A stretch of DNA of 64,000 nucleotides, taken from the NCBI GenBank assembly GCA_903889905.1, contig CAISZI010000042.1:6000-69999 (forward strand), read 5' to 3'. Shown piece by piece: positions 3,626-19,634 of this stretch; position 1 is the first letter of the stretch; the number at the start of each line of letters is the position of its first letter. This stretch comes from Candidatus Wirthbacteria bacterium. GTDB lineage: Bacteria > Patescibacteriota > CG2-30-54-11. The notes under the pieces were generated by a model that was not told the origin of the DNA, made no database searches, and was given only the letters and a program-made list of their open reading frames with translations. The position numbers were made by a program, and so were the translations under genes.

Positions 3626-3661
3626 TCCCAGTTACCCTATCTATGAGCTAAAGCTTCATAG

Positions 3662-3690
3662 ATTCTATCGCATAATAAGCGATGGAGCAA
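3662..3690 (-). promoter_or_regulatory. Candidate sigma70-type promoter for uvrA.
   Basis: On the minus strand, TTGCTC and TAGAAT are separated by 17 nt, about 35 nt upstream of the uvrA ATG. This is a sequence match only. Confidence 0.25.
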
Positions 3691-3721
3691 GCATAGGATA
3701 AGGGAAAGTTCTGTAACTTTT

Positions 3722-6700: not shown

Positions 6701-9700
6701 CAATTGTGCCGTAATGTCGACAAAGTTTCGCCCCCGAGCTTCTTGCTTGAGTGTTGCGAGCACGGCCATATTGCGCAGGTATTCCGGTAAATTCTCAAAG
6801 TATTTGATATCATGTGCACGTTTTTCGAGAAATACCTGTGTTGCCTTGTAATCTTCCATTTCAGCCGCATTACCGAGTCTAGCCTTAAGTTGATTGGCAA
6901 TCACCAGATATCCGTGGGCTTCGGCATCTCTGATTAGCTTGGCGATTTTGAGCGGATTTACAGCGCGGTCAATCACCTCAATTTCAGTTTCAATTTCCTT
7001 AAGTGTTGCAGAATCTTTTTTGGTGTCAACGAAGCCGATCGCTCGTATTAAATCGATCGATTGGTAATTCTTGGCTTCAATGATGTGATCCAATAAAACC
7101 TGCCTTCTTTGTGCTTTGACCGAGGTCATTTCGTTCTCGACTGTTTCATCCAGGTAAAATTTAATCGCATTTTCCAGCTTTATGCTTTCAATATCGGTAT
7201 GCTCAACATTCGCCCCATCTTTAGTTGTATTTGAGATTACTTTTACATCGTATTTTTGGCCAGCAGCATCCCACAGCACTTCGACTCGGACATCCTGTCG
7301 CTGTAAGGATAAAACATACAAGTTAAGTTCCCGCTCTATCGTTGGCTTGAGCAATTCAGGATCAGCATTAATTTCTTCAGCCGCATGGACAGCAAGCATC
7401 GTTCCTTGCTTGCGTTCGCCGGTGAACAACGCAATAGCGCCCCTGCGCTTTTCGGTTGCGATCATTCCTTCAAGCAAATTTACCACACGCCAGTTTTCGA
7501 CAACATCTGTTGACGCGGCAACGCTATCACGAACTCTGGTAACATCTGCTTCAATTTTGATACGAGTCCCTTCCGCGACCAAAGTGTCGATTGTTGCTTT
7601 GACATGTCTAACTTGCCTACTATCTTCAGTGACTACAGTTTCTCTGGCCCATTTAGCAAAGGCAACCATTCCATCATAATCCACAAGATTGTCTGGATCT
7701 TCGATATGTAATTGAATAGTATCGTTAATAATATCATAATCTGACTTCTCACTATCTGGGACTATCGTTAATTTCCTGAAGATATCCTTGCTGATTACTA
7801 AAATTTCAATGCGTACCTGCAAATTTTTCTTTACCTTTTCAATAGCTTCCTTGATAGGCTCAATTGGCTCTTCTTGAAATATATCTGATTTGAGTTTGAT
7901 TAACTGGTCTTCTAAATCCTTGTAATGAAGTTTGTGAGCAGAAACCAACAAAGGTTCTATTGTTTCGGTTTGCTTCTGTGCCTCGACACTGTAATCTGTC
8001 AACGACTTGGATAGTTCCGCGGAAATTTGCGTCAGGAATGCCCTGGCCTTGGTTAAATCTCCAGTATTGGCAGGATCAGCATTCCAAGTAGTAATCTTGT
8101 CGGCAATCTCCGTTTTGTGCTTTGTCCGAGCAAGCCCGAAAACGGCTTCCAATCGCTTCGGGATCCACCCCTTGTCCAATTTATCAAGTGCAGCCTGAAT
8201 TTCGGACAATTTGGCTGTTGCCATTTGCTCGTTAACAAATTTAGTAATATCGGCAATCAAAGCTGCATCCAAACCAAGCACATTGGCTTCAGCAAGTTTA
8301 CTCGCTATTTCTTGCTGAAGAGCAGCCTTTTTTTGAACAGCATTGACTTCGACATCTTCAAACCGATAGAGTTTAACCGCTTCCTCAAGCCCAATAGAGT
8401 CAACATCAATGTGAGCGTTGTCACGCAAATCTTTTGACTCAACACGGATGACATATTTTTGCTGAGCTTTGACCCAGGTTACCTTGACTTTAATATCATG
8501 ACGTTGCGATGATTCCACATAGTCAGTGACATCGGCCTGAATACCAGCTTCCAGTGATGCAGGTTCCTGCCGAATTTCTTCAACACTTTTAGTGGGAATA
8601 TTAGCGGGCCTGGAAGGTTGTCTGTCCTCAGCAAATAACTGCAAACCACTTCTGAGCCGATCCACTTCTGCTTCTGCCGCCATGCGAACATCTGCACCAA
8701 TACCAGTGGCTGCAGGCAATTTAAGCAGTGCTATTTCCTTGAAAGCCGCAAGTAAATCATTACCACTAATTGTAAGTTCTAGATTCGGCATTTTGACAGC
8801 TTGAAGTTCAAGTCGTAAGTCAAAATCAAACGTATCGGACTTATCATCGTACGTAATTGAATTAATTTCGAATTTGCACGTACTTAAATCAATTTTCTCT
8901 CTTCCCGATTCCTCATAAAACTTAATAATCACTTCTAAATGATCATTTGAGAGACGTATAACGTCCTGCAGAGTTAATTTCTTCAAATCTTTGGGTATTT
9001 CGCCAAAGGATCTGGGCTGAGTTGTTGCAAATTTTCTTCCGAATGCCAAATCACGGTCATTGGCAATGGTGACGACTTCATCCGTTACTCTGGCACCCCC
9101 TTTAGGAGATTCACTGGCATTGGTAGTATTCGGCTCTTTGTAGCTCACTTTGACAGTGAATTCTTTGTGTACACGGTCGTAAGTCACCTCGCCGATGCTA
9201 ATGTCCTCTTTGCCATTATCAGTATAACGGTCTTCGATCAAATCTTTGATCAGATCTTCTGCTAATTCTGGTCGGGCATCGATTAGTGCGATCTGGTCCA
9301 GATTAGTCAATTGCAGGCGGTCGCTTTTGAGTAAATTAAGGCTGGATTTGGCCTCGTCCAATATCTGAGTAACCAAATTAAAATCCTCACGCTGCACTTT
9401 TGGGTCATGGATAAGGCGATCGGCGTTGTCCAATCTCGCCTGATCCACACCCCACCATTTGGCACGGACAATTTCCTTGTCTGCCTGGGCAATGAGATTT
9501 TGTTTCTGAACCTCAATCATGCTCTCGATAGCATCGGCGACCTGCAAGAAGGCTTTTTCACTTTGACGGTTGATTTGATAAAAAGCACCCTGAACGCTAA
9601 CTGGGTCAACATCCCATTCTTCAAGGGCGCGTTTTTTGACTTCGTCTAAATGCTTCGCCGCCGCCATGCGTGCATTGATCTGTTCCTCTACAGCCCAAAA

Positions 9701-12700
9701 CTCTTCGTATTTGGTAAAAGTACCAGCCAAATCACGCAAATCAACACCAAGAGCTTGAGCCTTGGTGATATTGTCGCGGTAACGTTGGACTAATTTTTTG
9801 TCCACATCTTCCGCAAGTTTCCTTTCGGCGGCGTTAAATGCAGTAAAATTGAGAAAATCGTCCGATTGCTCTGGTAAAGCCTTAACATCAATGCTCAGAC
9901 CGCCAGCCATTTGACGATCTCTTGAATAGGATTGCTTCAAAATGGCTGACTGTAGAGCCTCGTGTTGCGTCTTCAGCACCCCAACATCAGTACTCGGAAC
10001 GAGTGGTAAATGCAGTGCATCGAGGCTAATGTTTAAACCCTGGGCGATTTTGACGCGCTCGATGTAAGCCGATGCGTCATCTGTCCCGGCAACTTCAAAA
10101 CCACGCCGGCCCAAAGAATGCGCCGACCCGGCCAAAACTGCTTCTACTTGAAAATTAACTGCGGCTTCCCTGGCAACGCCTTCTGTCCCAACCTTAAGAT
10201 AGCGGCCATAAATGTCCAAAGCTGATTCTAAATCGTAAACTCTTGGAGTGGAAATCACGTCTTTGACAATGGGCGCTTTGATTATTTCAGCTTTCAGCGG
10301 TACAGGAATCGTCAATTTGTAAGAAGATGTAACTTTGAAAAAATACTTTTTAACGATTGGAGCGGTACCAAACGTTTTGGTCTCAATCTGTACATCTACA
10401 TGGGGATCTGTCCCACCACGTGCTTGAATATCAACCATTTCTTTGTCTACAATCGCTTGTTTGAGATCGTTGAGTTGGTTGGGATCAGCTTCAATTGCCA
10501 ATTTCTTATCAGCTTTGAACTTATTGTAGGCAGCGCCTGACAGGCTGAGCGCACTTTCGCTAACGAGTGTTAGCGCGTCTGTCTTTGCCTTGTCGAGTTT
10601 GCGATAGGCCGTCAGCAAACTTTCCTTTGACGCCACTTCGTCAATGTCTGACATGTTGATGCCGGCGGCAAGGCGGATTTCTGGCGTGAAACGAGAATCT
10701 TCCAGCACCGCTTGCTTGAGGTCTTGCAATTTGCGGCGCCAAAGTCTGCCGTCGTAATAACTGAGACGCACTTTGGATAGTTCTGCTTGGAGCTCAGCCA
10801 CCGATAACTTTTTATTGGCCTTTATTCTTGCAACTTCCGCCTTGGCAGCGTCAAAATCATGATCACCGCCAAAAGTACTTACCAAGTAGTCCAATGAGGC
10901 GATAACTGGCGCTTTGGCCTCCGCATCAAGCCGCATCGCCTCGCGCACTGCTTCAATTGCATCCCGAACTTCGGGTACCGGGGTCTCGGTCATCGGATTT
11001 GCCAACAGCGTCAACGCGTCACGTGCGGCCGTCAATTTTTTTTTGCGATCGCTAAAGGCCTGTTTGGCCACTGCTTCGGTGGGAGCTTTGTCATCGGTCA
11101 TTTTGGCTAATTCAGCATTAATGCCTTCAACCGTCACGCCCATCCCCAGTGCTTCATGGCGGAGCTTTCGACCCAATCCCTGAACTGTGTTAACCTTTTT
11201 GCATTCAGAACGCAATACATCCAATTGCATTTGGAGTTGATACAAATTGACATTTTCAGTTTGGATGCCGGGCTCATGACGAATTTGGACACGCGTAAAG
11301 TATTCCGTATCCAGTTTTCGTAATTCAGCTATGGCGGCTGCTCGACTTGATTGATTATGTTTGAGTTCTTTTATGGTGCGAGCCTCAACAATGTGGAATC
11401 CAATCAATTCCGGCTTGGTCAAGTCTGGTGTTCCTTTGATGGCAATCACCCAGCGCTTATCCAAAGCGGCATTCGGTGGGGAGCCGGCATCTGGCTGGGA
11501 AAGAATGAAAAACTCAAAAGTAGGGCTTTGGACATGCTGGACAAAAGGCAACCGTTCCATTTTATTGGCTGGTAGTGAACCGGCGTCTGCCAAGACCTGG
11601 TTGATGTTTTCCAGTGAAAGCGGAAGACCCAGCCTTGCGGAAAGCGCAAAAAGAGTCGATGCTTTAGAAGTCGCTTTTTTCTTGTCATAGGTGACACCAC
11701 CAATATTCTCCATCAGCCCATTAGCAGCGTTTTCTTGCTCATTTTGATGGGCTGCAATACCAGCTTTAAATTTTTCGTATGCAGCCTTACCAGCATCAGC
11801 GGCAATCAGCATCGATAAATCTTGGTCTTGATGAAACTTCTGACGATTACTTTCGAGTGTGGACTTTAGCGCTTCCTCGACACATATTTCTATTCTTGCC
11901 TTGGACTTGTCAGTACTCAGGGATAATTGCCGGTCAAGTTCATTAACAAACTCAGAGTCATATAGGACAGTGCCAATCAATGGTCCCTCATTGAGATTAT
12001 TTTTTCTGGCAACCGTTAAAAAAGCCAACATTTCAGCTATGCCTTTGTTAGGAGATGCGTCCAATTTGTCAATCAACTCGGTCCGCACTTTTGGATGAAA
12101 AACGGCGTTGAGCTGGGATGCGACCTCCGATTCCATAGCATTATGGGCAACTTTACTCTGGGCATCGCGCATGGCTTCAACCATTCTACCTTCGGCTGCA
12201 ATTTTATTTCCACCTGCTGTGGTCACAATTTCCCTGTCAAAGCCCAAATTGACGTGATGTTCAGTCTTGATACGTAAATAGGATTTTGCACGACGGATGG
12301 CGTCACCAATGGCAGAGCTGCCATGGTGGTGAGTTCCTGGGCTCACAAGGGATTCAATTTTGCCCAGGTAAATGCCCAATTCCAGATATGTATGAATGCT
12401 GGTATTTTTGCTCTCGTCAACAGATTCAAAAAGCGCTTTGATGTTTTCTTCCGAAAGTACTGTATCGATGAACTGCTTGAAATGGGCATAAACAAGATTA
12501 TCCAGCTCGGGAATACCGGATTGTTTGTCTTTGATAATATCAACAGCATCCCGTAATTTATCAATGACATCAATCGTCTTGAGCGGGTCAACACTCGAAG
12601 CATCCAGTTTAGCGAAGGCATCATTAAACTTATTGAGTGGGTGTTTGTCCAGGAAACTTTTGATTTTGTCTCTCAGACCCTCTAATTTTGACTCATAAGT

Positions 12701-13540
12701 TGCGGCCTCATCAAAGGCAGCCAGAATGGACGCGGCACGGCTTTCAACTACTTCATCCTGTTTATCTTTCGAGGGTCTAGTTTCTTTTTTGCCAGAATCC
12801 AAAACCGATTTCAAATTGGCTTCGAGCTTTATCAGCTCACTTTCGAGATTTTTAATATTATGTGCAGCAGGATGGTTCGTTTTAAGGTCCTTGATTTCAG
12901 CCTTAACGCCGACAATATCCTTACGCAGTTGCGTCGTCGTCGCCACTAATGCGTCATAGGCATTCCCCGATTCCCACGCGGCTTCAGCCAGGATTCGGCT
13001 CAGAAGTGTTTGCACTGCTTCGGTTAAATCAGTCCCGGAGGCATTTTCTTCTTCCAAAGCCTCAATTACGTCCACATCGGACTTGTCATCCAAATTGGTC
13101 GGCAAATTGGCAGCAGTGCGTTCACTGGCGTTGCCGCGGGGCGGATTATGCAAAGATCGTTGTTCAATGGCAATGTTTTTAACAAGTTCATTGAACAACG
13201 GAGAATAACTATTAATCCGATCGATCTCATTGCTGAAGGCATTAACAGCCACCAAACGCTTCTCAATCTGTGCGGCATTGGCATGGGCGGCAAACTTATC
13301 AGTAGAAGCCTGACGGGTTGCCACGATTTTTTGGGCATCTTTAGGTTGAAGCCGTTTGGCGGGATTGGCTTTTTCGGCTTCCAGTTGAGCCAGTTGCGCG
13401 CTATCCAAATCAGCCAAATGGGTTAATTCTGCGTCGGCGATAGCGTCAAAGGCGTCTTCGATTGGATCCACTGGTTTGACGTTTGAGTCATCAGAATTGT
13501 GAAACGCATCTTCGCTTAAAGTCATGGGTTTCCCCACCAT
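3722..13540 (-). CDS. Giant protein of 3272 aa with unknown function. It is acidic, predicted alpha-helical and coiled-coil rich, and has interspersed ~45-aa beta-rich repeat modules. No TM segment or signal peptide is present.
   Basis: A single uninterrupted 9.8 kb ORF, with only short antisense ORFs opposite it. It contains repeated modules: VKVTWVKAQQKYVIRVESKD...SIGLEEAVKLY (about 8340-8530), VEVLWDAAGQKYDVKVISNT...SIKLENAIKFY (about 7130-7290), EVTYDRVHKEFTVKVSYKEP (about 9150-9215), KFEINSITYDDKSDTFDFDLRL (about 8800-8890) and a C-terminal VKYDSEKREFDVFLRIEQ (about 3760-3900). I see no recognisable enzymatic motif. An alternative start at Met6 (13525) is preceded by GGTGGGG. Confidence 0.85.
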   Translation of the reverse strand: MVGKPMTLSEDAFHNSDDSNVKPVDPIEDAFDAIADAELTHLADLDSAQLAQLEAEKANPAKRLQPKDAQKIVATRQASTDKFAAHANAAQIEKRLVAVNAFSNEIDRINSYSPLFNELVKNIAIEQRSLHNPPRGNASERTAANLPTNLDDKSDVDVIEALEEENASGTDLTEAVQTLLSRILAEAAWESGNAYDALVATTTQLRKDIVGVKAEIKDLKTNHPAAHNIKNLESELIKLEANLKSVLDSGKKETRPSKDKQDEVVESRAASILAAFDEAATYESKLEGLRDKIKSFLDKHPLNKFNDAFAKLDASSVDPLKTIDVIDKLRDAVDIIKDKQSGIPELDNLVYAHFKQFIDTVLSEENIKALFESVDESKNTSIHTYLELGIYLGKIESLVSPGTHHHGSSAIGDAIRRAKSYLRIKTEHHVNLGFDREIVTTAGGNKIAAEGRMVEAMRDAQSKVAHNAMESEVASQLNAVFHPKVRTELIDKLDASPNKGIAEMLAFLTVARKNNLNEGPLIGTVLYDSEFVNELDRQLSLSTDKSKARIEICVEEALKSTLESNRQKFHQDQDLSMLIAADAGKAAYEKFKAGIAAHQNEQENAANGLMENIGGVTYDKKKATSKASTLFALSARLGLPLSLENINQVLADAGSLPANKMERLPFVQHVQSPTFEFFILSQPDAGSPPNAALDKRWVIAIKGTPDLTKPELIGFHIVEARTIKELKHNQSSRAAAIAELRKLDTEYFTRVQIRHEPGIQTENVNLYQLQMQLDVLRSECKKVNTVQGLGRKLRHEALGMGVTVEGINAELAKMTDDKAPTEAVAKQAFSDRKKKLTAARDALTLLANPMTETPVPEVRDAIEAVREAMRLDAEAKAPVIASLDYLVSTFGGDHDFDAAKAEVARIKANKKLSVAELQAELSKVRLSYYDGRLWRRKLQDLKQAVLEDSRFTPEIRLAAGINMSDIDEVASKESLLTAYRKLDKAKTDALTLVSESALSLSGAAYNKFKADKKLAIEADPNQLNDLKQAIVDKEMVDIQARGGTDPHVDVQIETKTFGTAPIVKKYFFKVTSSYKLTIPVPLKAEIIKAPIVKDVISTPRVYDLESALDIYGRYLKVGTEGVAREAAVNFQVEAVLAGSAHSLGRRGFEVAGTDDASAYIERVKIAQGLNISLDALHLPLVPSTDVGVLKTQHEALQSAILKQSYSRDRQMAGGLSIDVKALPEQSDDFLNFTAFNAAERKLAEDVDKKLVQRYRDNITKAQALGVDLRDLAGTFTKYEEFWAVEEQINARMAAAKHLDEVKKRALEEWDVDPVSVQGAFYQINRQSEKAFLQVADAIESMIEVQKQNLIAQADKEIVRAKWWGVDQARLDNADRLIHDPKVQREDFNLVTQILDEAKSSLNLLKSDRLQLTNLDQIALIDARPELAEDLIKDLIEDRYTDNGKEDISIGEVTYDRVHKEFTVKVSYKEPNTTNASESPKGGARVTDEVVTIANDRDLAFGRKFATTQPRSFGEIPKDLKKLTLQDVIRLSNDHLEVIIKFYEESGREKIDLSTCKFEINSITYDDKSDTFDFDLRLELQAVKMPNLELTISGNDLLAAFKEIALLKLPAATGIGADVRMAAEAEVDRLRSGLQLFAEDRQPSRPANIPTKSVEEIRQEPASLEAGIQADVTDYVESSQRHDIKVKVTWVKAQQKYVIRVESKDLRDNAHIDVDSIGLEEAVKLYRFEDVEVNAVQKKAALQQEIASKLAEANVLGLDAALIADITKFVNEQMATAKLSEIQAALDKLDKGWIPKRLEAVFGLARTKHKTEIADKITTWNADPANTGDLTKARAFLTQISAELSKSLTDYSVEAQKQTETIEPLLVSAHKLHYKDLEDQLIKLKSDIFQEEPIEPIKEAIEKVKKNLQVRIEILVISKDIFRKLTIVPDSEKSDYDIINDTIQLHIEDPDNLVDYDGMVAFAKWARETVVTEDSRQVRHVKATIDTLVAEGTRIKIEADVTRVRDSVAASTDVVENWRVVNLLEGMIATEKRRGAIALFTGERKQGTMLAVHAAEEINADPELLKPTIERELNLYVLSLQRQDVRVEVLWDAAGQKYDVKVISNTTKDGANVEHTDIESIKLENAIKFYLDETVENEMTSVKAQRRQVLLDHIIEAKNYQSIDLIRAIGFVDTKKDSATLKEIETEIEVIDRAVNPLKIAKLIRDAEAHGYLVIANQLKARLGNAAEMEDYKATQVFLEKRAHDIKYFENLPEYLRNMAVLATLKQEARGRNFVDITAQLELLSTNPVRMADIDATKGAIENFRTELKIRVDLDDLNAEVTQKERLRPTYGSIHAKVTARLGDTAALADHAATRTFIRQMRTEIDAEDAAQVADAKQAIERLVNEANVLGIPEIRLEADSLASTGTVTELWQAVPQFEAVITAEKARRKEVSQDRFRLLVQVAEGLAEPIDTTDFRAEFNRATTLVEIDNLINGLNEQISARGESGSEIVDFRLPEDPSDQEFLLLERTILARARIIGTPLLEAVNAELSVHLNNPSQRKRRLRKLWKKVNPGWNDSEDRIAQANKDLHARVDKLRNEIKAAANRIRFTAEPVAQIDYEFDADNPRDVARVSLELQQRKVSGIYRIPMLQLSSLDLSQATEEDLIKETGRLEILLHDLEQISGADSFRPETEDVNIRFEMFGSQGLAGELGLPEATMAESLRQLLGGSVESVCKVTEGGNSYFVVMGHADNQIVRRLAIAPTGNTIGRLPLASVERITNEQIVNATANRESLVAIVTPKLQQIIEFEQSLGIAPSYNLDDMTLYQLGQLVDNLSRPGARVSAEVRKDPVDIMEKALDSMSSESLRQAAQEAGLEAESEIENQLKVIRIIETAALANAKQSKLEKVEDAIKEKERRKATGDDRSDSLLENINNDKTLFLRFSDDEIIQKREATKKILKIINESGRAGKVEVERTQPTAKDNLRMTMARNIKWLISTPDESLTADANQLIDKEEATDAECEELAVSIETAATTYFEQQKNDLLDVLAASLVNEYITVEQADQIRTFVAGDKEALMPGTIRTAQRRIENFSKDNSETVDRAIAGLAGPMRGVNTILDNHANLRAEHGEEIDRFEADYKRLSLATRLHDLNDIIEFRSHILTFQDTLLTYINQDDEYSADRTGPRRPHEDQADRNTGDFTAQQELLHKEPSMAFEMFKERYSDKVALTLARYPENVTHVTEVKYDSEKREFDVFLRIEQTGNQTVTILQEPKVRLAEAVTLMRRWSQATSTPGQKF

Positions 13541-13690: not shown

Positions 13691-13981
13691 ATGTCTGACA
13701 ACCAACAACCCGAAGAACACGTCCTGTTCTACCGCAGCGAAAAACTCGAACCGCGCGAGCTGGGTTATGAGCAGATTAAATTCGTGTTTATGAAACTGTC
13801 GGAATGGCTCCTTAGCCGCCGCCAGGAAACGCTGGAACAGCTGATGGAAATGCTCGAACGCCTGCAGCAGCTCTATCCACGTGCCTACGAATGGATGATG
13901 CAGATCATAGCCCAGCAGTTACCTCAGTTCCTGGGGACGCAACCGCCACCCATGGCGCAAACAGTACCGATTCCGACTTAA
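13691..13981 (+). CDS. Small hypothetical protein of 96 aa, predicted helical with a Gln/Pro-rich C-terminus.
   Basis: An ORF with a near-consensus promoter and a strong intrinsic terminator immediately downstream. It has no obvious Shine-Dalgarno and I recognise no domain. Confidence 0.5.
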   Translation: MSDNQQPEEHVLFYRSEKLEPRELGYEQIKFVFMKLSEWLLSRRQETLEQLMEMLERLQQLYPRAYEWMMQIIAQQLPQFLGTQPPPMAQTVPIPT

Positions 13982-13982
13982 C

Positions 13983-14011
13983 AAAATCCCGCCATAGTGG
14001 CGGGATTTTTT
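13983..14011 (+). terminator. Rho-independent terminator.
   Basis: aaaatcccgcc-atagt-ggcgggatttttt forms a perfect 8-bp GC-rich stem with a 5-nt loop and a T-run. It sits directly after the stop of the 96-aa ORF. Confidence 0.65.
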
Positions 14012-14038: not shown

Positions 14039-14177
14039 GTCATTGCGAGGGAGTCAGCGACCGCGGTAAGTTCATGGCTTGCAATGAACTTATCCAGCAC
14101 AGCTGGGCAATCTAGTTTCCAATTCTTACGGAGAAATCCACTAGATTGCCGCGCCCCGCGACGAGGCTCGCAATGAC
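14039..14177. repeat. Structured ~140-nt repeat element, copy 1. It has outer, middle and inner inverted repeats and could be a MITE-, REP- or ncRNA-like element.
   Basis: An outer stem (gtcattgcgagg ... ctcgcaatgac) encloses hairpin 1 (aagttcat/atgaactt, 14068-14091), a conserved block ccagcaCagctgggcaatctagt, and an inner 11-bp stem (ggcaatctagt 14106-14116 / actagattgcc 14140-14150). It shares this architecture and its conserved blocks with copy 2 at 18300-18440. Confidence 0.6.
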
Positions 14178-14331
14178 GGATTAGCATCGTTTGAACTAAT
14201 AAGGCCTACTTTGTTTCTCTGTGCTTTGTCGTATAATGCACCCGTAACCTGATCATTGTTAATACCGCGCACTTCGGCTATAATTAAATGATGCCATTTC
14301 CATCTTTTGGAGCAACGAAACCAACTCCCCC

Positions 14332-15381
14332 ATGAACGATACCCCTACTAACCAAAACCCAAACCTAAATAACACGACTTTCAGCCTGCTGCTGAAGTCT
14401 TTTGGGTTTAATGCGACCCAGGTGCAGTCGTCGCTAAGGGATGTCAATGAAATTCTCGAAAAGGAAATCCTGGGTGAGATTGCCGGCAAACTGACTGAAA
14501 GGCAGTTACACATCCTCAATACACTCAAGACACAACAGTCGGTCAGCCAGTTCATGAAGGAACAACTGCCGGATTTTGATGCGTTGCTGCGTGGCAAAGT
14601 TGAAAACCTGCTCAAAGATACGAACGCACAGCTCGACTCACTCAAAAATGTTGCCACAGCGCCATCTGTAACCCAACCCTCGGCTCCCCCTCTACCCCAG
14701 CCAGTACCAGTGCAAACAGCACCTGCCGTTGTCATACCAGCCGTTCCTGCCCCAATACCACAGCCACTACAGAGCTTTGCTTTGCCACTACCGGCAGCGC
14801 CTGTATTTCCACAACCAGCGCAAGCGTTGGTGCCAGTTACCGACAAACCCAATGCCGCAATGGATGATTTCAAAAAGAAAATGGAAGAGCTGCTCAAACC
14901 GCCCACAGGGCCCAAGGAAGTTGCCAAACCCCCAAGCACTGGCAAAGCGGGTGCTGATGGCAAATCCAAACTGCCTCCCCTGCCGCCACTACCGCCGTTG
15001 CCACCACTTAAGGGCGGCAAACCCGGTGGTTTTCCGGGCATGCCGGGCGCTGGTGGCCCAGCCAAAAAAACACCCGAAGAACTCAAAGCCGAAGAAGAAA
15101 AACGCCAAAAAGAACGTGCCGAAGCGGAACAAAAGATTGCCGAACAGCACAAGCTGGACGAAGCGGAAGTTGCCAAACTGATCGCTGAAATTATGGCCAT
15201 TGACGAAAGTGCCGGTAAAGCTGCTGAGGACGGGCCCCATGAAAAGAATTTTCTCAATAAGAAATACGAAAACAAATTACTGCATCAGCTCGAGCGCGCC
15301 GCGGGTAAGTCACAATGGCAACAAGGCGCGGAAATTTTTCATTTGCTCAAAAATCTGCGTCGCAAAGCCAACCAGCCTTAA
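14332..15381 (+). CDS. Proline/Ala/Lys-rich low-complexity protein of 349 aa, hypothetical.
   Basis: An ORF with PLPPLPPLPPLK and PxP-repeat tracts, a charged helical C-terminus (EELKAEEEKRQKERAEAEQK) and no TM. The 338-aa minus-strand ORF opposite it is an antisense shadow. It is co-directional with, and overlaps the start of, the ATPase gene, which suggests an operon. Confidence 0.6.
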   Translation: MNDTPTNQNPNLNNTTFSLLLKSFGFNATQVQSSLRDVNEILEKEILGEIAGKLTERQLHILNTLKTQQSVSQFMKEQLPDFDALLRGKVENLLKDTNAQLDSLKNVATAPSVTQPSAPPLPQPVPVQTAPAVVIPAVPAPIPQPLQSFALPLPAAPVFPQPAQALVPVTDKPNAAMDDFKKKMEELLKPPTGPKEVAKPPSTGKAGADGKSKLPPLPPLPPLPPLKGGKPGGFPGMPGAGGPAKKTPEELKAEEEKRQKERAEAEQKIAEQHKLDEAEVAKLIAEIMAIDESAGKAAEDGPHEKNFLNKKYENKLLHQLERAAGKSQWQQGAEIFHLLKNLRRKANQP

Positions 15382-18056
15382 CTTTTAGTCCAAGCCAACC
15401 CATGCCCCCTTCTCCCCAGGATTCCGGCAACGAAGCCTATTTCGGATTCAAAAGCAGCACCGCTCTGGTCGTTGGCATACTGGTGATTGTGGGCGCGCTG
15501 ATCGTCTCTGTGGTGAGTACGGCGTCACTCCGGAATCAACTGGACGCGACGAGTTTTGACGTTGGTTCGCTCTCCCTCACGGTTGGGATTGGCGTCGGCA
15601 TCGCACTGGGAGCACTGCTGCTGCTTTATATCATCGCCATGCTGATGCTGACTCGTATCCGTCACCACTATCGCCGCGAGCGGTCCCTAAACAGTGTGCT
15701 GATCTCGGTCAAGGTGCCTAAATTCACCGAAATCCTGGCCGACGCCTCGGAAGCTATTTTTAATAGCCTTTATAGTGTTTACGAAGCTTCCACGCTCACC
15801 AAACGCATCAACAAATACTTTGCCGGACAGGAATCGTTTAGCTTTGAAATTGTCTCCCAGAAACAAAGCATCGACTTCTATATGTATGTGCACAAAGATT
15901 TGGCAGAATTGCTCTCGCGCCAGATTTACTCCCAATACCCGGACGCGGACGTGGCAATTGTCGAAGATTACAGCGTTTTTTTTCCGGACTGCCGCATCAA
16001 GTTCACCGAACTGCGCCAGACCGCTGAGCCTGCCCACCCGATCAAAAGTTACCGTGATTTGGCCAAGGAAGCCGGCACGCAGCAACTCAAGGACATTACC
16101 GTGGATTCGATGAGTGCGCTCACCAACGCCATTGGCAAACTCGAGGAAGACGAAGCCGCGGTGGTGCAGTTTGTCATCCGGCCCACCGGCAAACAGTGGC
16201 AACAGGAAGGCGAACAGCTGATCAAGAAAATTTACGACAAAACCAAAGGCAAAGATAACCAGCCAGGTGAACAGCTCACCAGTGGCGACCAGGAAAAAAT
16301 CCGTGCCCTCGAGAGCGCCATTTCCAAACCTGGCTTTGAAACAGTGCTGCGCATAGTCACGGTATCGGACACAGAAAACAAAGCCGACATGAATCTCAAA
16401 AATATCCTGGCTGCGTTTGAACACTTTGCCATCGTTGGCCACAACCGCCTGCATCGCAAAAAACGTATCAGCAAGACCTTTTTCTTCCGCAGTTTCCTCT
16501 TCCGTTACATGCCGCTGATCAACTACAAACCGGCCAAATGGCTGTTTGGGCTGAATCCCTTCATTGGCCGCGTCTTTGGGCAGACAATGACTTTTAATAC
16601 CGAAGAACTGGCCTCGCTCTACCACTTCCCCAATAAAAACATCAACACCCCGCAGATCAACTGGCTCAAAGCCAAACGCGCCCCGGCGCCGCAGGAAGTC
16701 CCGACCACGCTGATGAAAAAGGGCCAGGTGGCCGAGGCAAAAGGCGACGTGATCATGCAGGACCGCAATGTCATGGGTTTCAACATGTATCGCGGCGTGA
16801 AGAAAGATGTCTGCATCAAACGTGAAGACCGCCGCCGCCACGTCTACTCCATTGGCCGCACGGGTATGGGTAAATCCGTCTTTATGGAAAACCAGATTTA
16901 TCAGGACATCGTCAACGGCGAAGGCGTTTGCGTCATCGACCCGCACGGCGACCTGGCGCGCAAGTGTCTGGAATTTGTGCCCAAATCGCGCATCAACGAC
17001 GTCATTTACTTTGACCCGTCCGATGTGGAGCGGCCTATGGGTCTCAATATGCTGGAAGCCCACACGCCCGAGGAAAAAGACTTTGCCGTGGCCGAGATGG
17101 TCGCCATCCTGTACAAACTCTTTGCCGAATTTATTGGGCCGCGGTTTGAACACATTGTACGCAACTCGATGCTGGCGATCATGGAACATCCCGATGGTGG
17201 CACGCTGGTCGAAATGATGCGCATCCTCACCGACGACGCCTACAAGGACGAGTGTCTGAAATACGTCACCAATCCGCTGGTCAAGGCGTTCTGGCAAGAA
17301 GAAATGGCGCAACAAGTTCAGTTCCACAAATCCGAGATGCTGGGGCCAGTGCTGTCCAAATTTGGCCGTTTTGTTTCCAATGACATGATGCGCAACATTA
17401 TTGGCCAGACCAAAAGTGCATTCAACTTCCGTGAAATCATGGACAAACAAAAAATATTGCTGATCAACCTCGCCAAAGGTAAAGTCGGTGACATCAACTG
17501 CAACCTGCTGGGCATGATTGTGGTTTCCAAACTGCTGATCGCGAGCCTTAGCCGCACCGACATTGCCGAGGAAGACCGCAAGGATTTTTACCTCTACGTC
17601 GACGAATTCCAGAACTTTGCCACGGACAGCTTTGCCACGATCCTGTCGGAAGCCCGTAAATACCGCCTCAGTCTCAATGTTACCCACCAGTACGTGGGCC
17701 AGCTCAAGGAAGAAATCCAGAAAGCCGTATTTGGTAACGTCGGTACCTTCATCAGCTTCCGCATCGGTGCGCCGGACGCGGAACTCGTGGCCAAGGAATT
17801 CAAACCGATTTTTGATGAAACCGACATGGTCAATGTCGAGAAATATACCTGCTACATCAAACTGCTGGTGGACGGTGTTACGACCAAAGGTTTCAGCATG
17901 CACACTTTCCCGCCGGTCAAGATCAAGCACCAGAACTACGCCGACAAAATCCACGAAATCTGCCGCCTCAAATACGGCCTCCCGCGTTCACTGGTGGACA
18001 AAGAAATCCGCCGCCGTGGACAATTGGACAAGGTATTGCAAGCGGCGGGACAGTAG
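15315..18056 (+). CDS. Membrane-anchored P-loop ATPase of the FtsK/HerA/VirD4 (TraD/TraG type IV coupling protein-like) superfamily.
   Basis: 913 aa. Two N-terminal hydrophobic helices (ALVVGILVIVGALIVSVV and IGVGIALGALLLLYIIAMLML) precede a soluble middle domain. The C-terminal NTPase has Walker A GRTGMGKS, a VIDPHGD motif and a Walker B-like YLYVDEFQNF, and ends with SLNVTHQYVGQL. The true start may be the Met at 15402 (MPPSPQ), which would remove the 67-nt overlap with the upstream gene. The 755-aa ORF on the opposite strand is a shadow. Confidence 0.8.
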   Translation: MATRRGNFSFAQKSASQSQPALTFSPSQPMPPSPQDSGNEAYFGFKSSTALVVGILVIVGALIVSVVSTASLRNQLDATSFDVGSLSLTVGIGVGIALGALLLLYIIAMLMLTRIRHHYRRERSLNSVLISVKVPKFTEILADASEAIFNSLYSVYEASTLTKRINKYFAGQESFSFEIVSQKQSIDFYMYVHKDLAELLSRQIYSQYPDADVAIVEDYSVFFPDCRIKFTELRQTAEPAHPIKSYRDLAKEAGTQQLKDITVDSMSALTNAIGKLEEDEAAVVQFVIRPTGKQWQQEGEQLIKKIYDKTKGKDNQPGEQLTSGDQEKIRALESAISKPGFETVLRIVTVSDTENKADMNLKNILAAFEHFAIVGHNRLHRKKRISKTFFFRSFLFRYMPLINYKPAKWLFGLNPFIGRVFGQTMTFNTEELASLYHFPNKNINTPQINWLKAKRAPAPQEVPTTLMKKGQVAEAKGDVIMQDRNVMGFNMYRGVKKDVCIKREDRRRHVYSIGRTGMGKSVFMENQIYQDIVNGEGVCVIDPHGDLARKCLEFVPKSRINDVIYFDPSDVERPMGLNMLEAHTPEEKDFAVAEMVAILYKLFAEFIGPRFEHIVRNSMLAIMEHPDGGTLVEMMRILTDDAYKDECLKYVTNPLVKAFWQEEMAQQVQFHKSEMLGPVLSKFGRFVSNDMMRNIIGQTKSAFNFREIMDKQKILLINLAKGKVGDINCNLLGMIVVSKLLIASLSRTDIAEEDRKDFYLYVDEFQNFATDSFATILSEARKYRLSLNVTHQYVGQLKEEIQKAVFGNVGTFISFRIGAPDAELVAKEFKPIFDETDMVNVEKYTCYIKLLVDGVTTKGFSMHTFPPVKIKHQNYADKIHEICRLKYGLPRSLVDKEIRRRGQLDKVLQAAGQ

Positions 18057-18146
18057 ACGAAAAATAATAAGCACTAAATTCTAACATTCAAACGAAGACT
18101 TCATCTGTCATGCTGAACGGAGTGAAGCATCCTTACTGCAGGTGAG

Positions 18147-18265
18147 GTCATTGCGTGGCTCTCCACAACGGTCCGTTTCATAAGTAGCACGGATTCCTGC
18201 TTGCTAGCAGGCAAGCTTCCTCCTTTGCCTGGCTTCGGAGGACAAGTCGCTGCACGCAGAATGAC
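18147..18265. repeat. Degenerate third copy of the structured repeat, lying in tandem just upstream of copy 2.
   Basis: It starts gtcattgcgtgg and ends ggacaag...cgcagaatgac, so it keeps the conserved termini. It contains two internal hairpins (gcttgc-tagcag-gcaagc and tcctcc...ggagga) in place of the canonical ones. Confidence 0.35.
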
Positions 18266-18299
18266 TACATTTGCCCTTTGCAAGGGGATAGAAAGTGCT

Positions 18300-18440
18300 G
18301 TCATTGCGAGGAGCCTCGACGTGGTTAGTTAATAGCTTGATATAAACTAATCCAGCAAAGCTGGGCAATCAAGTTGCTTGAATGTCTGCGACAGCAAACG
18401 CCACTAGATTGCCATGCCTTGGGACAAGGCTCGCAATGAC
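18300..18440. repeat. Structured ~140-nt repeat element, copy 2, in direct orientation relative to copy 1.
   Basis: gtcattgcgagg ... ccagcaAagctgggcaatcAagt ... ccactagattgcc ... aaggctcgcaatgac. Hairpin 1 has a different sequence but still pairs (ttagtt/aactaa, 18325-18350), and the inner loop forms its own hairpin. These are compensatory changes relative to copy 1. Confidence 0.6.
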
Positions 18441-18485
18441 TTTATTCCTACTCCTTGTAAGGGGGCGCTGGGTGTTCTCTTCTCC

Positions 18486-19634
18486 CTACACCTTCTTCCT
18501 CAGCCCCACCGTATTAATCGTGGCCTGGACTTCACCGACTTTTTTATCCCGATGGAGATTGAGTCCCTGAACCAGACCAACCATGGCCATGGTCACCCAC
18601 AGTGAGCTGCCACCGGCACTAATGAATGGCAGTGGAATGCCTGTGACCGGCATAATGTTGAGATTCATGGCAATGTTGATAAAGGCCTGCGCAAAAATGA
18701 CGACAAACGCGCCGATTGCCAAAAATCGCGCAAAATTATCCGTGGCGCGGCTCGCAGTGTGCAAAATGCGCCACAACAAAACGACGTAAAGCGCAATCAG
18801 GATAACCGCTCCCACCATGCCCAGTTCCTCGGCAATGACGCTGAAGATAAAGTCGGTGTGCCGCACCGGCAAAAATTTGTATTGGCTTTGTGTGCCTTGC
18901 CCCAGGCCAACCCCAAAAACACCCCCCGCACCGATCGCCACCAGTGCCTGCAAGACGTTGTAGCCCGTGCCTTTGGCGTCACGTGAGGGATCGAGAAAAA
19001 TCAAGATGCGTTCCTGCTGGTACGGCTTGAGCCGCGGCCACATCAGCGGCCCGCCAGCGACGGACGTGACCGCGATCAAAAGCAGGTGTTTCCAGGGAAC
19101 TCCAATCCCGACCAGCATGCCAAACCACAATACCAGCAGTACAATCGCCGTCCCCAGATCCGGTTCGACAAGGATGAGCACCGCCGGCGGGATCAGGATC
19201 ACGCTCGCCAGGCCAATGAAGTGCCAGGCCGAGGCAAACCGGCTGCGGTTGGCCATGACCGCGCACAGGACGATAAGCAGGCTGAATTTGGCAAATTCCG
19301 ACGGCTGCAGCGAGGTAAACCCGAGGTTGATCCACCGCCTCGCGCCCAACCTGGCATCACCAATGACAAGCACAGCGAGCAGCGACAATATCGTCAGGAC
19401 GTAGAGAACGATCGAAAGTGGCTTGAGAATACGGTAATTGACGTAGGTAAAAACAACATACAGGAACAGCCCCAATACCGCATAAATCAGCTGCAGTTGA
19501 AAAGCGCCACGGCCCTCCAGTGCGGTGGTGGCGTTGATCGTGGTGCTGTAGATCATCACCAGGCCAAACACCAGCAGTAGCACCATACTGATGAACATGA
19601 CAAAATCAATTTCCCAAAACTTCTGTTTATTCAT
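18486..19634 (-). CDS. ftsW: SEDS-family peptidoglycan glycosyltransferase (FtsW/RodA/SpoVE).
   Basis: 382 aa, with about 10 TM segments. It has the conserved SEDS signature region around GDARLGARRWINLGFTSLQPSEFAKFSLLIVL. A GGATGA Shine-Dalgarno-like element is upstream. I cannot distinguish FtsW from RodA on sequence alone. Confidence 0.88.
   Translation of the reverse strand: MNKQKFWEIDFVMFISMVLLLVFGLVMIYSTTINATTALEGRGAFQLQLIYAVLGLFLYVVFTYVNYRILKPLSIVLYVLTILSLLAVLVIGDARLGARRWINLGFTSLQPSEFAKFSLLIVLCAVMANRSRFASAWHFIGLASVILIPPAVLILVEPDLGTAIVLLVLWFGMLVGIGVPWKHLLLIAVTSVAGGPLMWPRLKPYQQERILIFLDPSRDAKGTGYNVLQALVAIGAGGVFGVGLGQGTQSQYKFLPVRHTDFIFSVIAEELGMVGAVILIALYVVLLWRILHTASRATDNFARFLAIGAFVVIFAQAFINIAMNLNIMPVTGIPLPFISAGGSSLWVTMAMVGLVQGLNLHRDKKVGEVQATINTVGLRKKV

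Follow-up and report, generated by a model that had tools for sequence, protein, structure and literature searches.

A variant of known hairpin DNA repeats on either side of two genes in a Patescibacteria genome

What are the two nested hairpins of about 140 nt that stand on either side of two plus-strand genes in this Patescibacteria genome: a structured RNA, the ends of a mobile cassette, or a repeat of a known kind? The two elements, copy A and copy B, lie on the same strand of the window, which is the whole 64-kb stretch of DNA that was analysed, and their coordinates (Table 1) are exactly those proposed by an earlier sequence-only reading of this DNA. The two copies are a variant of known hairpin DNA repeats, the CGTC-tagged REPs and Ssn-related motifs, and are not a new RNA. 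The likely full explanation is that two REP-like DNA hairpin units of an Ssn-linked variant, placed in inverted orientation to each other, make up each 140-nt element.

Anatomy of the two elements

Copies A and B had a mean identity of 82% in alignment, and all four of the conserved blocks that the sequence-only reading had quoted were kept in it. The core pattern CCAGCAnAGCTGGGCAATC had two exact occurrences in the window, against a chance expectation of 0.04 counted at up to 3 mismatches. The ends of each copy formed a perfect 11-nt inverted repeat, GTCATTGCGAG/CTCGCAATGAC, and the four exact occurrences of GTCATTGCGAG in the window were the four ends of the two copies. Both copies are near-perfect palindromes, and both strands fold. 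The minimum free energy of copy A was -63.6 kcal/mol, and the folds compared with shuffled sequences gave z = -7.6 (copy A) and -4.3 (copy B) on the plus strand and z = -5.1 (copy A) and -5.6 (copy B) on the minus strand. The proposal of a nested-hairpin repeat family was borne out by these strong folds and by the same termini in at least 120 genomes, while two structural details held only in part. Pairing was said to be kept despite sequence change, and of the 43 predicted pairs four had indeed changed on both sides between the copies with pairing kept, one of them in hairpin 1 (A-U to U-A), but hairpin 1 of copy B contained an internal mismatch; the compensatory change is real but thin. Similarly, the inner 11-bp stem was perfect in copy A only, since copy B has an A/A mismatch (GGCAATCaAGT versus ACTAGATTGCC).

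Each copy consists of two units with their tags outward. In the 5'-to-3' direction of its own strand, a unit opens with a (C/T)GTC tag, followed by a basal stem of 5 bp (ATTGC/GCAAT) that closes around a small internal loop rich in purines (GAG or CGAA type) and a hairpin of free sequence; an unpaired ATC-YNG tail completes the unit. The hairpin has 5-6 bp in the right arms, and there are two hairpins within the 57-nt insert of the left arms. The tags of the four arms were CGTCAT, CGTCAT, TGTCAT and AGTCAT, with a C preceding the tag of the copy A left unit (CGTC) and a T preceding that of the copy B left unit (TGTC). The tail was ATCTAG in three arms and ATCAAG in the left arm of copy B. Between the right units of copies B and A, one stem pair changed from C-G to U-A (compensatory) and one from U-G to U-A.

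Further units or their remains were found near copy B (Table 1). A general scan of the window for GTCAT plus 3 nt followed by its reverse complement plus ATC gave ten matches against 2.3 expected, five of which fell in the two gaps that hold copies A and B.

Table 1. Repeat units and neighbouring genes in the window
Feature	Position	Strand	Description
Conserved 96-aa gene	13691..13981	+	Opens the plus-strand block; lies upstream of copy A
Intrinsic terminator	13983..14009	+	Terminator of the 96-aa gene
Copy A	14039..14177	.	Composite palindrome, inverted unit pair, tags outward; perfect 11-nt termini, fold
Copy A left unit	14039..14115	+	Tag and basal stem GTCATTGCGAG at 14039-14049; 57-nt insert
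Copy A left unit, hairpin 1	14067-14075 with 14084-14092	+
Copy A left unit, hairpin 2	14094-14106	+	CCAGCacaGCTGG
Copy A left unit, 3' part	14107-14112	+	GCAATC, then tail TAG
Copy A right unit	14141..14177	-	37 nt; GTCATTGCGAG-CCTCGtcgCGGGG-CGCG-GCAATC-TAG on the minus strand
Pro-rich gene	14332..15381	+	Between the copies; no Pfam family; homologous to the neighbour in L122 (E 3e-28)
DUF8128 / T4SS coupling-protein-like ATPase gene	15402..18056	+	Between the copies; 884 aa; ATG at 15402
Third short unit	18107..18134	+	Different stem class, GTCATGCTGAACGGAGTGAAGCATCCTT; same intergenic gap as copy B
Degenerate tag	18147..18157	+	GTCATTGCGTG, 1 mismatch; 3' half not recognisable, hence a probable decayed unit
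Tentative decayed unit (low confidence)	18191..18265	-	GTCATTCTGC ... GCAGGAATCC; long structured insert, imperfect stem, identified by eye
Copy B	18300..18440	.	Composite palindrome, architecture of copy A; 82% identity to copy A
Copy B left unit	18300..18373	+	Tag 18300-18310; hairpin 1 18325-18330 with 18345-18350
Copy B left unit, hairpin 2 and 3' part	18352-18364; 18365-18370	+	Hairpin 2; GCAATC, then tail AAG (atypical)
Copy B right unit	18404..18440	-	37 nt; GTCATTGCGAG-CCTTGtccCAAGG-CATG-GCAATC-TAG
FtsW/RodA gene	18486..19634	-	Convergent with the ATPase gene

Distribution of the unit class and its nuclease partner

The family is pan-bacterial. The pattern GTCATTGCGAG-N100-130-CTCGCAATGAC was found at 120 or more genome loci from many phyla, and the matches listed included Patescibacteria such as Saccharibacteria, Peregrinibacteria and Shapirobacteria; Bradyrhizobium, Mucilaginibacter, Methylosinus OB3b and Helicobacter rodentium were among the cultured hosts. 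The unit was also present in at least 120 viral contigs (IMG/VR), and seven records of a plasmid collection carried the element, annotated in none of them. The window's own subfamily (CCAGCnnnGCTGGGCAATC...GATTGCC) had a single match in a metagenome scan, which was set aside as chance since it lay inside an ABC-permease gene, and in the same scan this subfamily, with its extra CCAGCnnnGCTGG hairpin, was not found outside the window. Searching the literature with sequence strings from the element returned unrelated primer matches only.

Both inner motifs, GCAAYC and GRTTGC, were present in 124 of 152 unique elements, and the insert enclosed by the basal stem ranged from 7 to about 68 nt across the family. 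Among 150 elements, the base before GTC was T in 73, C in 67 and another base in 10, and the flanking base was Y on the left in 140 and R on the right in 143. The commonest tails family-wide were CAG, TCC, TCA and TCG. Single units and tandem arrays in one orientation occurred as well (L053, L055 and L061), and at the viral loci 143 of 205 units had no strict partner. In strict inverted pairs stood 20% of units, a minimum estimate because the sample was ascertained on single units.

The variable hairpin covaries. The variable cores (n = 180) had a mean z of -2.2. In 31 units of the same length, among them both right arms of the window (that of copy A belongs to the aligned class with a 17-nt insert, whose inner helix covaries), five of the six pairs of the inner helix changed on both sides; doubly changed cells numbered 50, a count reached in 0 of 500 shuffles (18.9 +/- 3.1), and controls slid along the alignment were much lower. 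Covariation between the two arms of an element at the 4 nt beside GCAATC was weak (CGAA/TTCG in 56 cases, with many mixed combinations), so the arms look like independent units rather than one long co-evolving stem. The fixed parts of this unit class may be limited to the tag, the basal stem of 5 bp and the tail, with a middle hairpin that is free in sequence, covarying and of almost any size.

Clustering of the open reading frames within 400 nt of units showed that, among the matches listed, a small GIY-YIG protein of 95 aa was the only real gene family that recurred. Its gene was found at six of the 120 listed genome loci, in each case no more than 90 nt from a unit, and at one of the 120 listed viral loci; most copies are orphans. 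When homologues were chosen from the protein side, all six had GTCATTGCGAG-type units or close tag variants in their flanks, in a sample that came from a profile of proteins already beside the unit class and is therefore biased towards that subclade. The family matched a 94-aa gene of N. gonorrhoeae with 50-52% identity (tblastn, E 1e-21) and with an hhalign probability of 99.9 (E 8e-31). That gene is flanked by nine canonical NTS and is the published Ssn single-strand nuclease. Ssn genes are flanked by the unit class described here, for example in L128 and L131. Ssn is a single-domain GIY-YIG nuclease of 94-96 aa, the partner of the CGTC-tagged REP and NTS/SRM repeats. Bound to the hairpin of single-stranded DNA, it cleaves the tag strand alone, a few bases 5' of the tag; RNA and duplex DNA are neither bound nor cut (PMC11893778). 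Searches with the small GIY-YIG protein found only distant UPF0213 structures in PDB and no specific model in NCBIfam, and no GIY-YIG open reading frame was found in the 64-kb window.

Alternative readings and gene context

The sequence-only reading had placed the compensatory variation at the level of RNA structure. A structured non-coding or cis-acting RNA under RNA-level selection, be it a small RNA, a bidirectional terminator or an mRNA-stabilising hairpin, would be consistent with the strong folds, the covarying hairpins and the intergenic positions after gene ends, and REPs are reported to act as RNA elements (PMC3733652). Between the convergent genes that flank copy B a canonical terminator was not found, and the fold of the tag strand is better by 2.0 kcal/mol than that of its complement (247 units versus 35). 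This reading is nevertheless improbable. The element is a near-perfect palindrome, both of its strands fold, and G-U pairs showed no strand bias (167 versus 189 in 287 units). Purine-rich loops, for instance GCGAAGC (72 versus 2), account for the strand asymmetry, and as DNA too GCGAAGC forms a very stable mini-hairpin. Since a canonical terminator precedes copy A, the copy is not needed for termination, and no T-run was present after the elements. Rfam 15 gave no match on the window at the gathering threshold and nothing on the elements at E values up to 10, and at 17 related loci with dozens of copies it assigned no family to the repeats, the only matches being tRNAs and a c-di-GMP riboswitch; the statement that no ribozyme motif was visible in the sequence holds. 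A DNA-acting protein partner accounts for the conserved tag and tail. The published partner enzyme acts on single-stranded DNA only (PMC11893778), and with folding on both strands and unbiased G-U pairs, structure specifically at the RNA level is not supported.

Two transposon readings were less probable than this. A REPIN or BIME mobilised by a REP-associated tyrosine transposase (RAYT) would have the inverted doublet of short palindromes, the variable spacer and the clusters and mosaics that were observed, but is very unlikely given that the tag is YGTC rather than GTAG and that the open reading frames within 400 nt of units at the 120 listed loci included no recurrent transposase, only the GIY-YIG family; moreover, according to Di Nocera et al. 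CGTC units flank no RAYT or IS200 gene (PMC3733652). Slightly more remote is a classical MITE, which had been among the candidates proposed from the sequence, that is, a deletion derivative of an IS whose 11-bp terminal inverted repeats are recognised by a DDE transposase. The perfect terminal inverted repeats, the length of about 140 nt and the non-coding, multi-copy nature of the element would fit, but target-site duplications of 2-8 nt, sought at the boundaries of 150 elements, were at or below chance and in this sense none was found, the supposed terminal repeat also occurs as single units and in same-orientation tandem arrays, and a recurrent transposase family was absent near units at the 120 listed loci.

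The plus-strand block contains three genes. The copies do flank exactly the Pro-rich and ATPase genes, as had been noted, but they do not bracket the whole plus-strand cassette, since the 96-aa gene lies upstream of copy A, which is inside the block and not at its edge. The 96-aa gene was 55% identical (E 3e-29) to a 110-aa gene at the same place in L122, and copy A sits between the terminator of the 96-aa gene and a promoter-like site (14256-14284). Relatives with 65-67% protein identity have the small gene, the Pro-rich gene and the ATPase gene followed by FtsW and ParA on the opposite strand, without repeats. L122 carries the same three plus-strand genes between UvrA and FtsW-ParA, and the order ATPase-FtsW-ParA recurs in L124 and L125; repeats were absent from all three. 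In relatives, only a terminator and a promoter separate the small gene from the Pro-rich gene, and the ATPase-FtsW gap is -4 to +1 nt, so that the genes abut or overlap, versus 430 nt here, where the gap holds copy B and other units. In one relative the ATPase gene is closely followed, on its downstream side, by an ssn gene accompanied by hairpin inverted repeats.

Because the relatives keep the gene order without repeats, the repeats were taken to have inserted later, in two of the rare gaps that lack coding sequence, and a special meaning of the bracketing is not supported. Copies A and B are insertions relative to these relatives, and it is this comparison, at 65-67% protein identity, that points to mobility; no empty-site polymorphism was found at close range, where L131 and L132 were identical over the aligned region. 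The least probable reading of all, that copies A and B are the ends of a composite mobile cassette carrying the Pro-rich and ATPase genes, has in its favour that two direct copies enclose exactly two minority-strand genes, and it fails on the gene order kept without repeats in L122, L124 and L125, on the place of copy A within the block, and on a GC content that is the same as that of the downstream neighbours. The position on either side of two genes would instead mostly reflect where a compact genome has non-coding space, though an effect on recombination of the NTS-gene-NTS kind reported in Neisseria is possible.

Proposed mechanism and comparison with known systems

In the reading preferred here, an Ssn-linked variant of hairpin DNA repeats, an Ssn whose gene lies elsewhere in this Patescibacteria genome would use the copies in the window as substrates, or would have done so until recently. 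Recognition by Ssn would keep the tag, stem and tail, while the apical hairpins would drift with compensatory changes. Spread may have gone through a nuclease-dependent copy or repair route rather than DDE transposition, and any effects on transcripts, such as termination or stabilisation, would be a by-product. For this genome, neither a new RNA nor a mobile cassette is left as a candidate, and ordinary REP-like repeats in two non-coding gaps take their place.

A more speculative possibility, put forward tentatively, is that the GTCATTGCGAG...GCAATC units are a distinct pan-bacterial class of Ssn substrates which reaches Patescibacteria and viral contigs and was missed by the published pattern. 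If Ssn reads the minimal frame only, copying could act on the inverted doublet as a whole, which has a cut site just outside each end, one on either strand. The doublet would then be a mobile element of the REPIN kind that depends on a GIY-YIG nuclease instead of a transposase, and the modular hairpin would lend itself as a scaffold when cutters of single-stranded DNA are engineered. Ssn enzymes are under development as site-specific cutters of single-stranded DNA, and a small fixed frame with a variable hairpin is a testable substrate class for them.

REPINs and BIMEs (Bertels and Rainey 2011; Nunvar 2010) are likewise non-coding inverted doublets of palindromes that can fold into one long hairpin, with many orphan copies per protein gene and a protein that acts on single-stranded DNA hairpins. 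They differ in their GTAG tag and in their HUH tyrosine transposase, as opposed to a GIY-YIG nuclease, and REP sequences are lineage-specific, whereas the 11-nt terminus found here is identical across many phyla.

The resemblance to the CGTC-tagged REPs (Di Nocera et al., BMC Genomics 2013) is closer. According to that paper, this superfamily comprises CGTC-1 to CGTC-4, CGTC-1 being the Neisseria dRS3, and its members have stems that start with AT, of 8-9 bp with loops of 4-5 nt (Table 1 of that paper), a 3-nt tail, and a mostly dimeric arrangement (PMC3733652). With that superfamily the units share the terminal CGTC, often TGTC (three of the four arms in the window fit CGTC/TGTC/CCTC), stems that open with complementary A-T and T-A, a short unpaired tail (published consensus CCA, here C-YN), the lack of an associated transposase, and the predominance of inverted dimers, with spacers that contain small stem-loops or whose ends are complementary, both elements in the window being inverted dimers. 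The contiguous stem here is only 5 bp, and in the window the place of the loop is taken by a structured insert of 17-57 nt. The units were set apart from the CGTC families on these published dimensions, and a ATTGCGAG family among the published consensus sequences is possible.

Together with the CGTC-tagged REPs, the closest counterparts were the NTS (CGTCATTCCCGCGMAVGCGGGAATCYRG; PMC11893778) and the SRM of Chenal et al. (Nat Commun 2025). NTS have a continuous stem of 7-8 bp and a 4-nt loop, in contrast to the 5-bp basal stem, internal loop and hairpin seen here; the host here belongs to the Patescibacteria (CPR), a group absent from that paper (PMC11893778), and there is no ssn gene within 64 kb. 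The published SRM pattern, HGTCWYN(0-2)YYVSBRHN(0-5)WNVSBRGN(0-2)RNCYNB, matched nowhere in the window and at none of 422 GTCATTGCGAG sites, while as a control it recovered the canonical NTS and the nine NTS at the N. gonorrhoeae locus. Taken part by part, the SRM tag HGTCWY (H = A/C/T) fits all four arms of the window and the tail RNCYNB fits three, with ATCAAG of the copy B left arm failing at Y; the hairpin expected in a unit of 20-50 nt is present but its stem is interrupted, in right arms of 37 nt and left arms of 74-77 nt. The unit class is called a variant because it fails the published SRM pattern and the published stem and loop sizes. As it is invisible to that pattern, Ssn-related repeats have probably been counted too low, and "orphan" ssn genes likewise. 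In their (C/T)GTCAT tag at the 5' end, the hairpin, though interrupted, directly after it and the ATC-YNG tail at the 3' end, the units nonetheless resemble NTS and SRM, and they are likewise oriented, intergenic, clustered and often alternating in orientation, as at the N. gonorrhoeae ssnA locus, where plus and minus NTS alternate with gaps of about 50-130 nt; in both systems genes of the 94-96-aa GIY-YIG family are flanked by units. The suggestion of a REP-like element had named the correct kind, with an anatomy that follows the grammar of CGTC-tagged REPs and NTS.

Structure and gene context of the two copies

The two copies in the window (A and B, each ~140 nt) occupied the coordinates assigned to them by the sequence-only reading, lay on the same strand and were 82% identical, and every conserved block on which that reading relied was kept in both. 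A core 19-mer occurred exactly twice, against 0.04 chance matches expected (an expectation counted at ≤3 mismatches). Each element was made up of two units in inverted relative orientation with their tags pointing outward, GTCATTGCGAG was found at all four ends, and the units followed the formula (C/T)GTC-ATTGC-GAG-[variable hairpin]-CGAA/CGTG/CGCG-GCAAT-C-YNG. The inner 11-bp stem consisted of the tails and basal stems of the two facing units paired together. Both copies folded far better than shuffles and, the element being a near-palindrome, this held for either strand; in copy B, hairpin 1 and the inner stem each contained a mismatch. The proposed compensatory variation between the copies was real: in 4 of the 43 predicted pairs both partners differed between the copies and pairing was retained. 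Taken alone, however, a comparison of just two sequences is weak evidence. The gap downstream of the ATPase gene is a small mosaic of units, copy B among them.

Features of the window and of related loci (window positions unless a locus is named)
Feature	Coordinates	Strand	Description
Copy A	14039-14177		inverted pair of units
Copy B	18300-18440		inverted pair of units
Right arms			37-nt units; hairpin of 5-6 bp
Left arms			57-nt insert; two hairpins
Short unit	18107-18134		other stem class; in gap 18057-18485
Degenerate tag	18147		in gap 18057-18485
Decayed unit (probable)		-	in gap 18057-18485
96-aa gene	13691-13981	+	conserved; own promoter-like site and terminator
Pro-rich gene	14332-15381	+	second gene of plus-strand block
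ATPase gene	15402-18056	+	third gene of plus-strand block; 884 aa, DUF8128/coupling-protein-like
FtsW/RodA gene	18486-19634	-
Large ORF	3722-13540	-	single ORF of 3272 aa, with many coiled-coil-like repeats; divergent from plus-strand block
Low-GC segment	48000-54000		GC 0.38-0.42 versus ~0.50 elsewhere in window; may be foreign or specialised
ssn-like gene, L123 (CPR relative)	4110-4397 within 3861-4490		between ~35-nt long inverted repeats, CCTGAAACCCCAGTCATTCGACGGGGCGCAGCG and complement; inner hairpins of GTCATCCTGAAC type
Nested units, L084	1476-2016		canonical NTS-type TGTCATTCCCGCGTAGGCGGGAATC and GTCATCCCTGC-type units within GTCATTGCGAG dimers
Nested units, L089	4235-4372		as in L084
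Unit, L133 (Methylosinus trichosporium OB3b plasmid pOB3b1)	100184-100215		unannotated in RefSeq; in 120-nt gap with convergent methyltransferase and PfaD genes either side

The host is a member of the Patescibacteria (CPR), and homologues of the ATPase came from Woesebacteria, Levybacteria and similar groups. The minus strand carries nearly every gene of the window, and the supposed cassette of two plus-strand genes proved to be part of a block of three (96-aa, Pro-rich and ATPase). Gene order was kept in relatives at 65-67% ATPase identity, in which the ATPase gene either shares 4 nt with the FtsW gene or is separated from it by 1 nt. Between their small and Pro-rich genes there is a terminator and a promoter and nothing else. 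The window copies are therefore insertions into non-coding gaps. A mobile cassette with the repeats as its boundary was rejected, since the relatives keep the gene order without repeats in the gaps; the bracketing of two genes may be chance, given two copies and few available gaps. In a third relative (L123), a 95-aa GIY-YIG gene directly followed the ATPase gene and was surrounded by hairpin inverted repeats of related type. The layout of this ssn-like gene resembles an insertion sequence, at the same place after the ATPase as copy B.

A widespread family of covarying hairpins

That the copies belong to a repeat family was borne out when one genome per species was scanned for the two termini at a spacing of 100-130 nt: at least 120 loci across many phyla were found. 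Hosts among the loci listed included Alpha-, Beta-, Gamma- and Deltaproteobacteria, Campylobacterota, Bacteroidota, Chloroflexota, Cyanobacteria, Planctomycetota, Elusimicrobia, Firmicutes, Atribacterota, Omnitrophota, Armatimonadetes and several CPR lineages. Units also occurred singly and in tandem, and a scan for single units found them in at least 120 viral contigs. Some viral-classed contigs from IMG/VR (L208, at 2670-6932, L212 and L164) carried 6-15 units, tandem runs at ~40-nt spacing among them.

Inner GCAAYC...GRTTGC motifs were common to 124 of 152 unique elements, in which the basal stem usually continued 2-4 bp into variable sequence. The variable cores differed in sequence, yet formed hairpins (mean z -2.2). 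When 31 units with a 17-nt insert, both window right arms among them, were aligned without gaps, the inner helix covaried at five of six pairs; double-change cells numbered 50, shuffles gave 18.9 ± 3.1 and the values for slid controls were far lower. Target-site duplications of 2-8 nt, a sign of MITEs, were not found at the boundaries of 150 family elements.

A small GIY-YIG protein associated with the units

ORFs lying no more than 400 nt from a unit were clustered, and a small GIY-YIG protein was the only real recurrent family in the 120 loci listed. A profile of this family identified genes in 6 of 120 loci (among at least 120), every one within 90 nt of a unit; of 120 viral loci (among at least 120), 1 had an ssn-like gene. 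Six homologues were taken from the protein database with long contigs as the sole criterion, a sample biased to the subclade behind the profile. In all six, the nearby flanks contained units of GTCATTGCGAG type or close tag variants of it, in some on both sides. The association with Ssn holds for the unit class of the window. Contigs with small GIY-YIG genes were mostly 0.5-2 kb, as would be seen if these genes lie within repeats at which short-read assembly fails.

UPF0213 structures were only distant relatives of the family, which matched a 94-aa Neisseria gonorrhoeae ORF (tblastn identity 50-52%; hhalign probability 99.9, E 8e-31). This ORF, inspected in NZ_CP119140.1 and NZ_CP119142.1, was surrounded by nine canonical NTS of alternating orientation; the locus is the ssnA arrangement of Chenal et al. 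2025 (PMC11893778). Both 2.17-Mb records are listed as plasmids in PLSDB, though chromosome-sized.

Folding favoured the tag strand over its complement by 2 kcal/mol (247 units versus 35). This asymmetry came from purine-rich loops such as GCGAAGC (72 on the tag strand, 2 on the other); as a DNA mini-hairpin, d(GCGAAGC) is exceptionally stable, a property that would suit a role as ssDNA. G-U pairs were enriched on neither strand, and no Rfam family matched the window or the elements, those of 17 related loci included. Together with a partner that would act on ssDNA, these results argue against a new structured RNA, though the repeats may have side effects on transcripts.

Relation to known repeat-nuclease systems

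SsnA binds the hairpin of the NTS and, on a single strand only, cuts ssDNA upstream of this hairpin; it acts on neither RNA nor duplex DNA, and lowers transformation by NTS-flanked DNA. In Neisseria, an NTS-gene-NTS arrangement affects recombination of the enclosed gene (Chenal 2025, PMC11893778). By analogy, the window copies would be substrates, or relics of substrates, of an Ssn whose gene lies in another part of the genome. Recognition by Ssn may explain why every one of the four arms has kept its tag, basal stem and tail as the apical hairpins changed, and in the outward-tagged dimer the cuts are predicted immediately beyond either end, one on each strand. Such cutting may be how copies spread, and recombination of the two genes between the window copies may be affected as in Neisseria.

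The sequence-only reading was thus right that the feature is real, in its limits and in naming a REP-like element as one candidate; the feature does not represent a new RNA, nor does it mark the edge of a cassette. Di Nocera et al. 2013 (PMC3733652) defined a superfamily of CGTC-tagged REPs that includes the Neisseria repeats, and described dimers, tails, stems with an AT start and no transposase. The window elements belong to this NTS/CGTC-REP superfamily, sharing with NTS/SRM and CGTC-REPs the tag, the tail, the AT stem start, the dimer habit and, at the level of the unit class, the protein partner. Classic NTS-type units co-occurred with the window class at some loci, at times nested inside it, and the nesting in L084 and L089 indicates that unit classes insert into each other. 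The repeat-nuclease system is already known, and the new part is a variant hairpin class: a 5-bp basal stem closes an internal loop and a hairpin of free sequence, whereas the published families have an 8-9-bp stem and a loop of 4-5 nt. Of 422 units of the window class, 0 matched the SRM pattern as published, which did recover canonical NTS in the same data. Given this and the difference in hairpins, we treat the window class as a variant inside a known kind, and as a strict member of neither the SRM nor the CGTC-REP definition.
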